Assembly (NCBI GenBank): GCA_045862955.1
Contig: BTVI01000012.1
Coordinates: forward strand, 18,453-82,452
DNA: 64,000 bases
Reading direction: 5' to 3'
Origin: Fimbriimonadales bacterium
GTDB lineage: Bacteria; Armatimonadota; Fimbriimonadia; Fimbriimonadales; JABRVX01
Shown: piece by piece, positions 45,001 to 51,000 of the stretch
How positions within the stretch are numbered: the first letter of the stretch is position 1
How the letters are laid out: each line of letters begins with the position of its first letter
Program-made: the position numbers

Positions 45001-48000
45001 TCGCGAGTCGAAAAGGCTCGAGTAGGTCCGGGGTTCGCGGCGACCGCACTACTCGTTCGCTGTCGGGCTCTGTCAGACCGGTGCTTCCACCCATCCGAGC
45101 ACAGCGCGACGACCATTCCGACATGGGGCGTCCGCTTGACAATTGCCCCACCTGCGCGATGCCACTCACCCTACGCCGGATCTGCCGGCGACGAAACACT
45201 ACTCGAGCCGATGCCGCGTTGCGGCGACACCCTATAGGCTACACAGGGAGTGGCGTGGAAGTCAACACCTCGACTTATGGCAACCATCTGGAGTCTGGGG
45301 TGATACGGGCGTTACAATGCGTGGGCCGTCGGCCCGGCGGTTTCATCGTTTTGGGGCCGTGCGCGAAGTTGCCGCGAGCCCTAACGCCCCACTAATAGTT
45401 ACGCTTTTTGTCACTGCCGGAACGAAAGTACCAATGGGTAGATCGGAGGTCGCCGGCGACATTTTTGAGAATCTTGTTTCGATTCGCACTGAACGAGTGA
45501 GCGGAGAAATCAGTAGAAATCAGCTCATATTTGCCCGAGGATGGACTTGGTCGGACTCGCGGACTCCTTGACTCGCAGCCCTCGGCTTGTCTAGACTAGT
45601 GGTGTTGATGAGATGCGGCGGCCACCCCCCGGTGCGCCGTGATGGCCAGAATAGGCCCATTACCTTACACTTATTATGCCATTTTAGGCAATTGTTGGGA
45701 GAAGTTGTGAACTGCGAGTATGCGACCAAGGCGGTTGATTGTGCGAACGGCCTCGGAGGGAACGGACAGCCGGCGGCATACAGGCTCGCTCTCCCCCGCG
45801 CCACGGATCCGGCAGTTAGGTTAGGCGACTGGGCACGTGGTATTACCAAAGCCCCCTACAACCTCGAGGCCCTTGCTTCGACTCAGCGATTCCTGGACTC
45901 GGGTGAGTCTCGGCTCCTCGTCTGCGGTCCCCAAGGCTCCGGAAAAACTCTCTTGCTTCACGCCATTCAGTCGGCGCTCGTAAGGCAGTCCGGTCGCAGG
46001 TCGGTACGGATGTACCGTGCCGATCAGTGGTTGCTTCAGCGGCAGCCCGTGCGAAATGTGCGGGCGCTTCTCGTGGACGATATCCATGCGATTCTCGTCG
46101 CAAGGCCGGCTGCCGAGGCACTGGCCGAGGCCGTTCGAGCAGTGGTGGACGATGGAGGTCAAGTCGTGCTGAGCTGCCTAAAGCCTCCGACGCCAGGGGA
46201 GCGTCAGCGCTTCGGGTTCGGGGGCGATGGTTGGAACCATGCCGTGCTGCATCAGCCAGGGCTTGCAGACCGCGTGATGCTCATGTCGCAGATGGCCCAG
46301 CAGCGTGGCCTTCAGCTCGACGATGAGGCGCTTCGCGTGATCGCCGAGCGCGTCCGCGGGGGCCTGAACGGTCTACAGGGAGCCCTCCACAGGCTGCTCG
46401 TGCTGCGAGACCACGCCGGGCATGCGGCGTTGAACCCGGCGAGGCTCGCGGGTCTTTTGGGCCCGCTGGAACGTGGGGGCTCCTATGCCGAGCTGCCCGA
46501 GGCGGTGGACTCCGTGCTCACCAAATTCGGGCTCGCCGGTGAGGAGAAGTTGGACTGGGCGGCGTTCTTGCTCACCCGGTACGCGAGTGTGACCGAGGCC
46601 ATTGCGGCCGACTGGCTCGGCGTAAGCCGCTCGCGAGTACACCATGGCGCTCGGCAGGTCGAGGCGATTACGGACATCGAACCTGGCAAGAAGGAGACGA
46701 TGCGTGCCGTGACCGCGGCGCTGGATGCCGAGATCCTGGGCCGCTCCACCCTACCGTGCTGAAAACCGGCATAGGCCCTGCTGCTCCCCTCTGGCGCGCT
46801 TGCGGAACCTGGGGCATAATGAAGTGCCGAGGAAGGAACCGAACGCATTAGCCATGGAGTGGCGGTGAACACCACAGAATACGCGCTCGTGCAAGGGGCT
46901 CGACCTTTTGTACCGGCTATCGAAAGACGACCTGCGGACGTGAAGCTGGTTTCCGACGTCATGGAGGCGCCGCTCTGGCTGTGCCCCGACCATACGGTTC
47001 GAATGGCCCTCGCGATCATGAAGGGCCTTTCCGTTGAACTGGTCGCCATCGTCGAAGGCGGCGCGTATCTCGGCACAGTGGACTGGAAGGACCTGATTAC
47101 CGCGCCTCCCGACGAACCTCTGCTCCGGGTCATGCGCAAGGACGCCCCGTACCTTGCACCGGATGCCTCCGTTCGCGAGGCAGCCGAGATGCTGACGAAT
47201 CAGAAGCTGAGCAGGGTGCCCGTAGTCCGCAACGATGCGCTCGTAGGACTTCTGGGAGCAGTGAACCTGCTCGACGAGGTCGGGCGTTCCGAGGACCCGC
47301 TTACGGGACTCCCTTGGTCCGATAGTTTGCGCGAATGGGCGCTGGCCAAGTTTCGATCCGGCAAGGAGCTCTCCATCCTATTCTTCGACCTCGACAATTT
47401 CGGGCAGTTCAATAAGCGGTTCGGCCACCTGGTCGGCGACCACGTGCTGCAAGAGGTGGCCGGAGCTCTGCGCGAAGGCGTGGACCCCCACATGGATTTT
47501 CTCTGCCGATACGGTGGGGACGAGTTCACTATCGCAACCATGCGGCGGTCCGAAGCAGCGAACGCCCTCGCCGCGGACCTTGCGCACGCAGTGGCGTGCT
47601 TGCGCCCGAGCGGCTCCGAGGAGCCAATCACCGTGTCGTGGGGAGCGTTCGGCGGGCAGCGCGACCGAGAGCGCGAGGACGTTCACTACGCCGCAACACT
47701 CGACGCGCTCATCAACCAGGCCAGCAAGAACTGCCAGAAGATGAAGGACCGCAAGAAGGAAGAGGCGCAAGTGGCTCCTTCGGCGCAGGCCGTGGTCGCG
47801 GTGGATATCGGCGAGGTGGGGCCGATTACACTCCGGTCGTTGAGCGTGGTGGCAGGGGATGGGGACAGCGTGGCGTCGGTCGAGCTGCGAGTGGGGGAGA
47901 GCCTTTTCAGTGCTACGCTATCTGGCCCTCCGGACCGCGCCTCGACACTGAAGACTGTGGCGCAAGCGGTGGCGGATGCTATCAGTCATGCATTGCCGAA

Positions 48001-51000
48001 CGACTGCACGATGGTCGTGCACGATTGTCAGGTTTCGTCCGAAGTCGATGGTAGCGAGTTCGTTAGGGTCAAGTCCACGTTATATACCGCGGACGCCATG
48101 CGGGAGCTGACCGGATCTCACTCGGTGGAGGGCGATCCTCAACGGGCGGTGGCACTTGCAACGATCGCCTCCGCCCAGGCAGAAGTTCTCAGCGCTGTAG
48201 AACGTGGCTCCCTCCGCGAGAACGGCCCATCTCCGGTCACCTAGCGCACCTCTCCTCTGGGGCTCACATCGCAACGAGACCGTACGGGCGGATTGCGTTG
48301 GTACGGGCATCACCGTATGCGAGTGAGACGTCATGCTGAGCGTGTCGAAGCATGCGAGCGAGAGCGTCCACCTAACACCTCCACCCGATTGTCTGCGGCA
48401 GCCGGCGTCATGCTTCGACCCGCTCAGCATGACGATCTGCGCCAAACACCCGTGATGGTCTGTCTGCCAACACACGCAGCGATTATCCCTCGCCCCTGCG
48501 TGTGGGGAGGGATAGGAACTGCGAGCGGTACCGCGTGCTATCTTTGCCCCTCACCCCTGCGTGTGGGGAGGGATAGTAGTAGGCAGCGCCCTATACCTCG
48601 ACGTGCTTCCACTTCCCTCGGTGGAAGACGTACATGGCCACGAAGGCACCGAGGAACGTAGCGATGGTCATGGACCACCACGCTGCGTCCGCACCGCCGT
48701 GCAATGGCAACGCCCACACGTAGGTTAGTGGCACTCGGAACACCCACATGGCGAAAATGGCCACCAGCATCGCGCGGAACGTGTCGCCCGCACCCTGAAG
48801 GGCCATCATCAATACCATGAGAAACGCGAGCGGGGGCTGAGAGATGGCGGCGATCTTCAGGTAGCTCATCGTACACTGCAAGACAGCAGGGTCGGACGTG
48901 AAAATGCGTGCGAATGGCTCGGCGAATACGAACATGGGGATTGCCATGAAGGTCATGATGGCGCAAGCCTGCGCGCCAGCGATCCATGCCAGCCGCTCGC
49001 CCTTCTCCGGCACTTTCGCCCCCAGCGATTGCCCGACGAGCGCGGCCGCGGCCATCGCATAGCCAAAACCCGGCATGAAGGCGATGCCTTCTATCACCAT
49101 GCCGATATTCAGCGTGGCTAGAGCGGCTTCTGCCTGCGGTGTGCGTGCCAAGATCCCCGTGAACACCGACATGCCCAGCGTGCGCGCGCTGGTCTGGATG
49201 GCAGTAGGATATGCGATGCGGACGATGCGAGCCACCCATTCCCAGTCGGGGATCAATCCCAAGTGAAGCCCACCTAACACCCGTCTCCGAAGAACAGGCA
49301 TATACAGGAACAGTGCCACCCAGACGGACACAGCGAAGCCCGTGGACGCGCCCGGCAGACCCAACCTCGGAGCTCCGAGGTGACCGAAGATCAGCACCCA
49401 CGACACCGCGATGTGAATCACCACCATGATGGACATCACATACATCGGCGCTCTCGTGTCGCCGATCGCCCGCAGCGACCCCGCAAGAACGTTGCCCACG
49501 AAGATTGCGGGGATCGCGAACAGCGTCGGGATTAGGTACTGCCGTGCAGCCGTCTGCGCCCCCGCGCCGACACTTCCCATCATCACCGCGATCAGCCAGT
49601 CGAGCAAGAGGAAGCCTGCTACGGACACGAGCAACCCTAGCATGACCGCCAGTCGCACGCACTGGTTCATCGCCTGCTTCGCGGTCGGCAAGTCGGACGC
49701 GCCATAGAACCGAGCAACGAGAGCGGTAGTAGCGCTGCCCAAAGCGAAAGCTAAGGACATCATAATGAACACGATCATCATGCCCACACCGCTGCCGGCG
49801 AGAGCGTCCGTTCCGAGCGCGCTGATGAACTTGCGGTCCACGAAGGTGTTGACCGTCTGCACCAGGTTCAGCACAATGACCGGCCAGGCCAGCTCCCAGA
49901 CCATGGAGGAGAGCGGCCGTTGCGACAAGACCAAGGGCTCGGAGCGGCTCGGCAGGTTCGCCCGATCCTCGAACGTAGAGGTGGTGGTGGCCATCGGACA
50001 ATGCGAATAGTACCACGACTGCTGGCGGGCAGCCGGTAAGCCGGGTCAGCGCCCGGGCCAACCGGGACCCTGCGCTGGAAGCGAATAGCGCTGTGCCGCT
50101 CCGCCTTCTATGGCCGCGACGGCGTGTACTGGAGGTCCCCCTTTGGATCGGCGATGCGGAACGCCACTCCCCACGCGCCGTCTCCCTGCCCCGCCTTGAT
50201 CAACACCTCGTTCGTGCCTTTCTTGAGCCGGACCGGCACGGCGTACTTGTCCGCAAGCATGTGGTTTACACCGGGGACTGCCCAGACCAGCTCGCCGTTC
50301 ACCCACAGCTTGCCCGCGTCGTCCACGCTGACCAGTGCGGTGGCAGTGCGCTCGTCCGGACAGATGACATAGGTGTGCAAGTACGCCACACTGCGGGAGC
50401 TCGGCTTCACTATCTCGTGCAGCCACAGGGGCCCGTTCGCATCCTGGGTGCGCCAGCCGATTCGCTGATCCCCCGCCTGATAGGTAGCAGACAGATCCAC
50501 CTTCGATTCAGGGCCGAAGTCGGTGCTATAGCCAAAATCGGGGCCGGCCGGAAAACCACCTATCAGATTCCACTGCTTGGGGAAACTGCCGGCGCTCTGC
50601 ACCTTGTAGGCTCCTAGCCCCATGCCGTAACCGCTGCTCTTCTCGTTCTGACCTACCACTCGTAGTTCCAAAACGTGAGGTCCAGGCTGAAGGCTAATGG
50701 GCTCCGAGCGCAGGTGCATGTCGTGGAAGAAACGCTCGCCGTACAGGTCGAATCGCTGGCCCGTGGGCTGGCCGTCCACAACCAGCTCTACCACGCCGAA
50801 GTCCGGTCTGCGCATTGCCATGATCTCTATGATGTAGCGGTCCTCGATCTCGGTGCCGACGTCCCAGCGGAGGTATCCGCCCGGCGAGGGAGAGGTGAGA
50901 AGGAATCTCTCGGGCCCGTGGTAGCCTTCCGCGAGCTGCTGCAGAGGCACGAAGCGCGCATCCCCACCCCCTGCCTGGAGCCCGGCCTCGACGTCTAGCG

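Follow-up and report, generated by a model that had tools for sequence, protein, structure and literature searches.

Why does a bacterium of the order Fimbriimonadales carry, besides its replication initiator, a second DnaA-like gene directly ahead of a CBS-GGDEF gene, and can that protein still act as DnaA does? The locus lies in a window of 64,000 nucleotides, the whole stretch of DNA analysed here (Table 1). As the earlier note had proposed, its product is a DnaA paralogue with domains III and IV and no domain I, distinct from canonical DnaA (C6:101-1483; TIGR00362 450 bits, cut-off 344), which is its sole other match in the genome by tblastn. Also as claimed before, a profile (here of 33 paralogues) finds T. 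maritima DnaA over domains III–IV (E 4.5e-23) ahead of Hda (1.4e-10). The structure model (pLDDT 87.8, pTM 0.81) superposes on DnaA domain III with Z 19.9 (rmsd 2.2, 214 residues aligned) and on 83 residues of M. tuberculosis DnaA domain IV at 7% identity. A median of 62 residues (range 40–81) precedes Walker A, versus 167 (150–226) in DnaA, and domain I (DnaA_N, PF11638) has no match in the paralogue. Canonical DnaA (TIGR00362; 2z4r, 8btg, 1l8q, 3pvp) is the best match in both sequence and structure, the two sharing the domain III and IV folds, the lid GAL-R helix and, as had been stated, the Walker A and B motifs; in its AAA+ domain III, then, the paralogue does have what is expected of a DnaA initiator.

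Table 1. Features at the paralogue locus, in window coordinates
Feature	Coordinates	Strand	Basis or remark
dnaN, beta clamp	41728..42858	-	Context; away from canonical dnaA in this genome
dprA	42931..43827	-	Context
ftsZ	43840..44940	-	Context; divergent from the paralogue in 3/3 f1 genomes
Sigma-70-type promoter-like site, TTGACT-18-TAGACT	45568..45597	+	Consensus match only; shuffle mean 0.6 sites in region
DnaA domain III–IV paralogue, 351 aa, without domain I	45707..46762	+	ORF with GTG start, profile, structure model
Walker A, GPQGSGKT	45926..45949	+	Lys (K178) in 167/171 family members
Walker B, DD	46076..46081	+	First Asp (D235) in 168/171 family members
Domain IV fold, residues 262–344	46490..46738	+	3pvp, Z 12.1, rmsd 1.6
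Recognition helix VSRSRVHH, replaced	46622..46645	+	E. coli DnaA, RDHTTVLH
CBS pair, deviant GGDEF and C-terminal beta/alpha domain, 461 aa	46859..48244	+	ORF, domains, structure
GGDEF motif	47513..47527	+	I-site RxxD missing, PxxD here

The single-copy paralogue occurs in 88 of 121 genomes of the order, namely in 88 of 91 across three families and in 0 of 30 across two, and is absent from all 137 other genomes of the phylum. This extends the distribution given earlier (19 of 31 genomes), and a profile search agrees that one family is without it (0 of 29 genomes, two of them examined in depth). Both 1.5-Mb genomes are missing it. A diverged copy hidden upstream of the cyclase gene was sought in nine loci of families f3 and f4 and in G018, and none was found. 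The description of the gene as fast-evolving stands: each of 78 genome pairs compared shows lower identity for it than for canonical DnaA domains III–IV, with a median of 27% versus 46%. With a dN/dS of 0.21 (0.04–0.06 for four other genes), the paralogue is under purifying selection. Its tree mirrors the family split of canonical DnaA; this is a quick tree with long branches and does not place the duplication.

What the protein has lost is extensive. In an audit of 171 paralogues against 27 canonical DnaAs, where the register of sensor I and box VII depends on the alignment, D269 of sensor I is found in 20 of the former and 25 of the latter; R281 of box VII, present in 27/27 canonical proteins, is outside the five commonest residues; and the R285 column, Arg in 27/27, is a gap in 171/171, with no Arg near that position in the window copy. 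The Walker A-to-B (K-to-D) spacing is about 43 residues versus 57 in DnaA, a deletion of about 14, and the initiator-specific insert with Val211, which binds ssDNA, is missing. At the sensor II Arg334 position 106 of the 171 have Arg and the window copy has Asn. The earlier note had not mentioned the losses of sensor I, arginine finger and insert. It was right that the DHTTV-type helix is replaced: R399 is a gap in 127/171 paralogues (kept in 26/27 canonical DnaAs), R407 remains in 36/171 (27/27), H434, kept in 26/27, has become Pro in 127/171, and the positions of T435 (G in 73, S in 38, A in 34) and H439 (R in 35, A in 34, S in 20) vary. The box-reading set of an initiator (R399, R407, D433-H434-T435, H439) is lost, and the basic loop of domain IV is deleted. 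Relative to canonical DnaA the paralogue also lacks domain II, the AID residues and the signature, scoring 55 bits against the cut-off of 344.

The loss of domain I, insert, sensor I, box VII finger and box-reading residues argues against an initiator and against an Hda alike. With domain I goes the part that contacts the helicase and DiaA, with the insert the part that binds ssDNA, and with box VII and the AID residues the parts for filament formation and in-trans hydrolysis; the DnaA III–IV fold and the nucleotide pocket are retained. The R227 position is D/E in 117/171 and that of L290 is variable, so that a filament-type contact between DnaA molecules is unlikely. W176 (99%), G249 (95%), D262 (90%) and E297 (99%) are fixed in the paralogues, the last belonging to a helix-turn-helix core with A301 (89%) and Y312 (76%). 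Base-reading positions thus vary where buried and junction residues are fixed, which fits a role in protein contacts. A basic helix retained in f2, the largest family, and in f5 is lost in f1, the window's own (net charge about -1 versus +5), so a single function may not cover all copies. An N-terminal RLSxxLF motif of f2 was seen in 47 of the 171; it resembles an MshEN or clamp motif but is too short to call.

We tentatively favor, at somewhat under even chances, an old, vertically inherited dnaA duplicate turned into a non-initiating regulator, a nucleotide-binding modulator of initiation controlled by DnaA. In such a protein the binding of ATP or ADP would be weak or not followed by turnover, given the lost sensor I and the Asn at sensor II here, and the protein would act by contacting other proteins, not by occupying a set site on DNA. 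Its transcription would be controlled by canonical DnaA, for which the regulation of hdaA by DnaA (PMC8203912) is a precedent. A forward DnaA box (at most one mismatch) lies in 19 of 32 f2 upstream windows versus 14 of 482 control windows, the f2 genomes being kin and not independent counts; 13 of the 32 f2 loci and all three f1 loci have none. Of 24 box-to-promoter distances, 20 put the box 103–131 bp upstream of the operon's -35 element, a fixed distance that partly reflects intergenic length, as the boxes begin just past the stop of the upstream gene. In G010 and G092 the exact tandem pair of boxes occurs nowhere else in the genome. A TTGAC..ACAAT-type site is found upstream in 30 of the 37 loci scored (of 42; four f5 and one f2 were unscored). 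These boxes upstream of the promoter, and a third gene in the operon, were absent from the earlier note. The intergenic region has no Rfam match to a riboswitch or known RNA (folding z -0.72); a 6S RNA lies on C7. Among replication genes, dnaN is near the paralogue at two of three f1 loci and recF and/or dciA at five of five f5 loci; with dciA near it there, we rejected the paralogue as a replacement for the DciA helicase loader.

The target of the favored modulator might be DnaA itself or a DnaA–clamp inactivation step, the protein acting as a feedback decoy or brake. This guess borrows the logic of HdaB of Alphaproteobacteria, which PMC7049699 describes as DnaA-derived, without Arg399 (as is the paralogue) and a proposed initiation decoy. 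The likeness has limits: HdaB consists of domain IV only and keeps Leu422 (same source), whereas the paralogue has the whole AAA+ module and Glu at that position in 170/171 members, which counts against our explanation, Leu422 being needed for contact with Hda; and in this genome no Hda to titrate was found. The lack of domain I is not unique either, as Atlas "DnaA/Hda family" clusters with domains III–IV only, from Planctomycetota, Bacillota and Actinomycetota and named automatically, have the same architecture at about 320–370 aa. They differ in containing Bac_DnaA_C in 97–100% of members, whereas a scan of 33 members of the paralogue family lists 25 families without it.

The most serious competitor, though we rate it as less likely, is a nucleotide-sensing transcription factor that would control its own operon or others, its domain IV still binding DNA but recognising different sites as lineages diverge. 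It would account for the full-length domain IV with DnaA fold and conserved helix-turn-helix core, for the typical, basic recognition helix of f1 (SRSxVH in most of six rows) and for the short A-tract repeats seen by eye between boxes and promoter at several loci. However, domain IV has lost its basic loop, the 171 members share no conserved surface residue in the recognition helix, and the conserved upstream motif is the canonical DnaA box, which canonical DnaA itself would explain.

The neighboring gene suggests another role, which we consider unlikely: a partner of the CBS-GGDEF protein, whether activator, inhibitor or c-di-GMP/GTP effector, that would tie nucleotide signalling to a DnaA-like protein. 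The CBS-GGDEF gene directly follows the paralogue in the same orientation in 68 of the 72 genomes with both, in three families; the cyclase is unusual and single-copy, with an orthologue in 102 of 121 genomes of the order; and the Arg-rich helix of f2 and f5 could conceivably bind a cyclic dinucleotide. Yet each gene also occurs alone, the cyclase in 30 genomes and the paralogue in 16 of its 88 (absence being no match at E<=1e-45). The family without the paralogue has the CBS-GGDEF gene in 28 of 29 genomes; at the loci inspected there, the genes ahead of it are of the UspA, TrkA-N and periplasmic-binding types. In G018 and G097, which lack the paralogue or have it elsewhere, the CBS-GGDEF gene still adjoins ARC. 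Among five opened paralogue loci without it, the ARC/Mpa proteasome ATPase gene comes directly next in two, and in one a 107-aa remnant lies between. In four of the 16 listed RNA runs, represented by contigs with thin cover, no contig bridges the paralogue and CBS-GGDEF; at that depth the result says little either way, and the co-transcription proposed in the earlier note is not confirmed. The link between the two is looser than first thought; the earlier note holds for anatomy, rate and taxonomic range, while the pairing of DnaA with c-di-GMP that it implied is weaker than claimed.

Nor do intact GGDEF letters mean a normal cyclase here. The protein shares with PleD-type diguanylate cyclases the GGDEF fold (Z 20.1) and equivalents of D327, N335, D344, E370 and K442, and with AcuB-type proteins the CBS pair fold; GDEF, D151, N159, D168 and K270 are invariant in 18/18 rows (the first Gly is Ala in three), and the set GG(D/E)EF, D327, N335, D344 and K442, listed for active cyclases in PMC12943098, is present. 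The "intact GGDEF" of the earlier note is thus correct to the letter, but, with positions mapped by motif rather than superposition, 30 of 31 orthologues (one not parsed) have Gly in place of K332, the transition-state stabiliser (same paper), and just 2 of 30 have Arg at the R446 position. It differs from PleD-type cyclases further in LxWSD for LxNR, an inserted GGxRxxER segment and an RxxD site that is mostly missing. The cyclase's unusual residues occur in families without the paralogue too, and so do not track it. The C-terminal domain, in no Pfam family, may by its model be LeuA-allosteric-like, offered as a lead only. Under the favored modulator reading, the CBS-GGDEF and ARC genes would most simply be co-regulated passengers on the same promoter.

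A functional Hda, which at the clamp would stimulate DnaA to hydrolyse its ATP, is improbable. Like Hda/HdaA (TIGR03420; 5x06, 3bos), the paralogue lacks domain I and the insert (spacing 43 versus 46), the genome has no other Hda-like gene that we found, and 112/169 members have, two positions ahead of the conserved Trp, an Arg that could be a shifted finger. But Hda is the AAA+ module only and the paralogue has domain IV and a GxxGxGKT Walker A; it scores 53 bits against the TIGR03420 cut-off of 195; and the shifted Arg is missing from the window copy and comes after a Leu-Pro, which interrupts the box VII helix. Hda requires both clamp motif and arginine finger, according to PMC5397184, whereas the paralogue has no QLxLP-type clamp motif (a loose Q pattern occurs in just 9/171 N-termini) and its window copy no finger. 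The likeness may extend to regulation, DnaA controlling hdaA transcription in Caulobacter (PMC8203912).

Least credible is a second initiator, or a gene at oriC with the upstream boxes as origin, which every missing initiator determinant of the protein opposes even though the exact tandem box pair occurs once per genome in G010 and G092, few boxes lie at canonical dnaA loci, and the G090 locus is 70–150 kb from the inferred origin with dnaA about 0.9 Mb away. Skew, parS and dif positions rejected oriC here. In G090 the locus is at 1,865 kb, whereas the skew minimum falls at 1,797–1,798 kb, parS at 1,701 kb and a cluster of three boxes at 1,714 kb; G046 switches from minus to plus at about 151 kb, with the locus at 292 kb; the best fit in G037 is 2,760–2,870 kb versus 2,381 kb; and G055 gives no support. 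The GC-skew minimum coincides with the f2 boxes in 0 of 4 genomes, three of which (G055, G037 and G046) have a weak or irregular skew, and the window has no skew switch. In G090, G049 and G087 the antipode of a dif-like site falls closer to the paralogue than to dnaA, which places the paralogue origin-proximal there, though not at the origin; dif-like matches in G034 and G037 are weak (three mismatches), and G055, G101 and the window's own genome yielded none.

Canonical DnaA here itself begins with an Hda-like clamp motif. The Q-[LFY]-x-[LF] hexapeptide occurs in 22/27 and 15/30 sequences, with the arginine finger intact, and a search of this genome found no Hda. In a scheme that we advance as speculation and consider unlikely, clamp-tethered canonical DnaA could switch off other DnaA in Armatimonadota, with no separate Hda; the paralogue would be a DnaA-induced decoy that takes but does not return the contact, while the DnaA-box promoter would time CBS-GGDEF and ARC to the replication cycle.

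In the literature searched, mainly open-access main text, no paper treats the paralogue family or the DnaA clamp motif. How re-initiation is stopped outside Proteobacteria and Bacillota is largely open, and Fimbriimonadales have in three families a DnaA derivative that is single-copy and near-universal, with pocket and domain IV fold kept and the filament, finger and box-reading parts lost, along with DnaA boxes on its promoter in f2 and a clamp-like motif on canonical DnaA. Were the paralogue an ordinary, drifted transcription factor, it would still show a way, undescribed so far, in which an initiator can become a regulator.

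Both open reading frames that the earlier note placed here are present in the window. The first, a DnaA paralogue, matches Pfam Bac_DnaA (E 1.8e-7), and the second carries a CBS pair and a GGDEF domain by domain search. As claimed, the canonical dnaA is a separate gene, on contig C6, and DnaA over domains III–IV ranks before Hda among solved structures when a 33-orthologue alignment is the query. The predicted structure of the paralogue is confident from about residue 40 onward, and this model matches DnaA domain III with Z 19.9 and DNA-bound DnaA domain IV with Z 12.1 (rmsd 1.6, 7% identity). 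The paralogue is a real gene, since its dN/dS against a same-genus genome is 0.21; the same comparison, a single pair (a second genome pair was saturated), puts dnaA and dnaN both at 0.06, with the CBS-GGDEF gene at 0.056 and ftsZ at 0.04. The paralogue is also fast-evolving: all 78 pairs compared show it to have diverged further than canonical DnaA.

A profile search matched the paralogue at E<1e-40 in 87 of the 121 genomes of the order, one further match being a contig-edge fragment. By family, the profile finds it in 3/3 genomes of f1 (which includes the window's genome), 66/68 of f2, 19/20 of f5, 0/1 of f3 and 0/29 of f4; the two f2 genomes without it are both of 1.5 Mb, and the presence and adjacency counts take in one unpublished f5 genome (G036). 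Two DnaA matches are confined to this order within the phylum, as previously proposed: among 137 phylum genomes outside it, none has a second DnaA-level match, 118 have one and 19 have none at E<=1e-12. A library search with the paralogue returned 210 clusters at E<=1e-30, the two nearest being from Armatimonadota (Atlas). Clusters with domains III–IV only also occur in Planctomycetota and elsewhere (Atlas), so the architecture is not unique, but these retain Bac_DnaA_C, which is not among the 25 families listed for 33 scanned members of the paralogue family. In a quick tree, which gives no date for the duplication, the paralogues form one clade, and because this clade repeats the f1 versus f2+f5 split of canonical DnaA, the tree fits vertical descent. 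The paralogue is a new variant among DnaA-derived proteins, real and lineage-restricted. No published description of the family was found in literature listings, and PMC5835720 gave no match for the residue terms. According to the 2014 Fimbriimonas genome paper (PMC4072686), the replication genes are scattered and the origin is unclear; its accessible part does not mention a second dnaA.

For a residue audit, 171 paralogues (33 alignment rows plus library matches of 300–370 aa, shorter ones left out, a few rows redundant) were compared with 27 canonical DnaAs and with E. coli DnaA and Hda. The Walker A Lys is retained in 167 of the 171, the Walker B Asp in 168 and Arg302 in 154, and W176, G249-x-L-x-P and W-D at 261–262 are family constants. 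The initiator-specific insert is missing (spacing 43 versus 57 in DnaA; 46 in Hda), the Arg285 column is a gap in 171/171, and the sensor I Asp is found in just 20/171. Arg281, Arg227 and Leu290 are lost, as are the basic loop including Arg399, Arg407 and the DHTT-type signature, whose replacement had been noted before. Sensor II is Arg in 106/171 and Asn in the window's copy, which also lacks the Arg found two positions ahead of the conserved Trp in 112/169; the Leu422 position is Glu in 170/171, and in f2 and f5 copies Walker B is followed by a helix rich in Arg (net +5), absent from f1 copies. In DnaA, Arg334 is the sensor II residue, and Arg407 and His434–Thr435 read the DnaA box. Accessible parts of the literature cover the roles of Arg285, Val211/Arg245 and Arg227/Leu290 in DnaA (PMC6868365), of Arg399 and Leu422 (PMC7049699), and of the Hda clamp motif and arginine finger (PMC5397184). 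From the residues kept and those lost, the paralogue should bind nucleotide; judged by sequence, it cannot open an origin, assemble into filaments of the DnaA type or recognise DnaA boxes, nor does it qualify as an Hda.

A TTGAC-spacer-ACAAT-type site lies upstream of the paralogue in 30 of 37 scored loci (37 of 42 were scored). In f2, 19 of 32 loci have a DnaA box in forward orientation upstream (one mismatch allowed); in control windows, taken ahead of other genes in four f2 genomes, the figure is 14 of 482. The box-to--35 distance is 103–131 bp in 20 of 24 cases. For the first 30 loci, 19 compares with a shuffle mean of 2.2 and maximum of 7. Among the matches listed, a tandem box pair is seen at this upstream position in 11/17 f2 genomes with a full listing and in 2/18 from f5. 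The forward box is found in 0/3 of the window's family; a variant box is possible there, since the signature of its canonical DnaA has drifted (KDHSSAIYA), but none was found. We rejected the boxes as oriC, as they lie off the skew minimum in 4/4 genomes tested. They start directly past the stop of the upstream gene, which we take to occupy the side where trios are expected, leaving no space for trios. The rules for origin layout, trios included, are the BUS rules (PMC8287927, accessible part). The simplest reading is a predicted DnaA-regulated promoter, for which DnaA control of Caulobacter hdaA offers a precedent (PMC8203912, in the part available).

The reading we tentatively prefer is that canonical DnaA would control expression of the paralogue, which would bind nucleotide and modulate initiation through protein contact. 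HdaB shares this proposed logic (PMC7049699, accessible part), although the paralogue is not an HdaB member. Counting against such a modulator, the paralogue no longer has the residues known for DnaA–DnaA and Hda contacts, and the upstream boxes are missing from the window's own family. We consider it rather unlikely that the paralogue is instead a drifted transcription factor.

Canonical DnaA carries a Q-[LFY]-x-[LF] motif about a dozen residues ahead of domain I in 22 of 27 phylum sequences and, in a second, partly overlapping sample, in 15 of 30 (13 of 28 outside the order), the patterns being loose and picked after the sequences had been seen. Families that lack the paralogue have the motif too, and the first pattern is found in 9/171 paralogue N-termini. 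One canonical DnaA reads QLELP, near the QLSLP of Hda, and in the window's genome an E. coli Hda query matches canonical DnaA only, no Hda being found there. We regard the motif as Hda-like and a putative clamp motif. Within the order, the signature with which canonical DnaA reads DNA has drifted (DHSSAIYA in the window's genome, DHTSMMHG in f2), few DnaA boxes lie close to dnaA, and mutL follows dnaA in the window's genome. In genome G090, dnaA lies ~0.9 Mb from the inferred origin. Genome G046 has a very strong GC skew with a sharp flip near 151 kb, fading past zero near 300 kb; an inversion may account for this, or a misassembly.

Locations of features in the window and in compared genomes (G, genome, G000 being the window's own; C, contig; L, locus)
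Feature	Location	Strand	Remark
DnaA paralogue	window 45707-46762	+	351 aa
CBS-GGDEF protein	window 46859-48244	+	461 aa
CBS-GGDEF family region	window 46937-47800		alignment A2
Non-coding block	window 45016-45270		86% identical to same-genus genome only
Degenerate repeat array, long, CCACCCTCGGGTGGAG-like	window ~33600-34650		read in translations only
REP-associated-transposase-like ORF	window 33006-33953	-	beside the CCACCCTCGGGTGGAG-like array
ORF, presumably with MshEN-like N-terminus and degenerate kinase-like domain	window 24136-26358		next gene presumably a FlhG/MinD-like ATPase
Putative Hda-like motif of canonical DnaA	G000:C6:101-130 (= L238:101-130); L093-L112, L215-L244		
Canonical DnaA signature and nearby boxes	G000:C6:101-1483; L093-L107		
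GC skew flip	G046:C6:91601-491600		
dif-like ATAATNAATATTATGACA	G090:C1:72231; G049:C1:546952; G087:C1:1113836		a single copy in each of the three genomes
ARC/Mpa ATPase and two Dop/PafA-like genes	L049:11478-13127; G000 C16:64260-65873, C60:2904-7519		

The non-coding block lies upstream of the minus-strand ftsZ, behind a promoter-like TTGACT-18-TAGCCT. Short RNA contigs from three runs cover it (one of 196 nt, depth 17); it has no Rfam match and is not 6S, and it would be a long leader or a small RNA.

A CBS-GGDEF orthologue occurs in 102 of the 121 order genomes and is the next gene after the paralogue in 68 of the 72 with both. The DnaA/c-di-GMP pairing implied in the earlier note stands as strong synteny but not as a demonstrated module. 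Each gene also occurs alone: the CBS-GGDEF gene in G018, the single f3 genome and 28/29 from f4, and the paralogue in 16 genomes (of which 11 belong to one genus and at least two have it at a contig end). That the paralogue acts as partner of the CBS-GGDEF cyclase is improbable. An ARC/Mpa ATPase (TIGR03689, 459 bits, below the cut-off of 505) is usually the third gene at f2 and f5 loci and directly follows the paralogue at two of five inspected loci where the CBS-GGDEF gene is gone; in the window's genome it sits on contig C16, away from the paralogue. A Pup-proteasome-type system is present in the order, with this ATPase and two Dop/PafA-like genes. The GGDEF motif had been called intact; metal and guanine residues are retained, but across the family Gly replaces K332 and R446 has gone (residue list from the accessible part of PMC12943098). 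In two other GGDEF proteins of the window's genome, the FKxxND and KRSGR patterns are the usual ones. The family is order-wide and single-copy, with invariant non-canonical LxWSD, FGxxNK and GGxRxxERxxxH and a LeuA-allosteric-like C-terminal domain. The protein may work as a cyclase that is slow or altered, or may instead sense GTP. The family is a candidate for assays of GTP sensing or of a product out of the ordinary.
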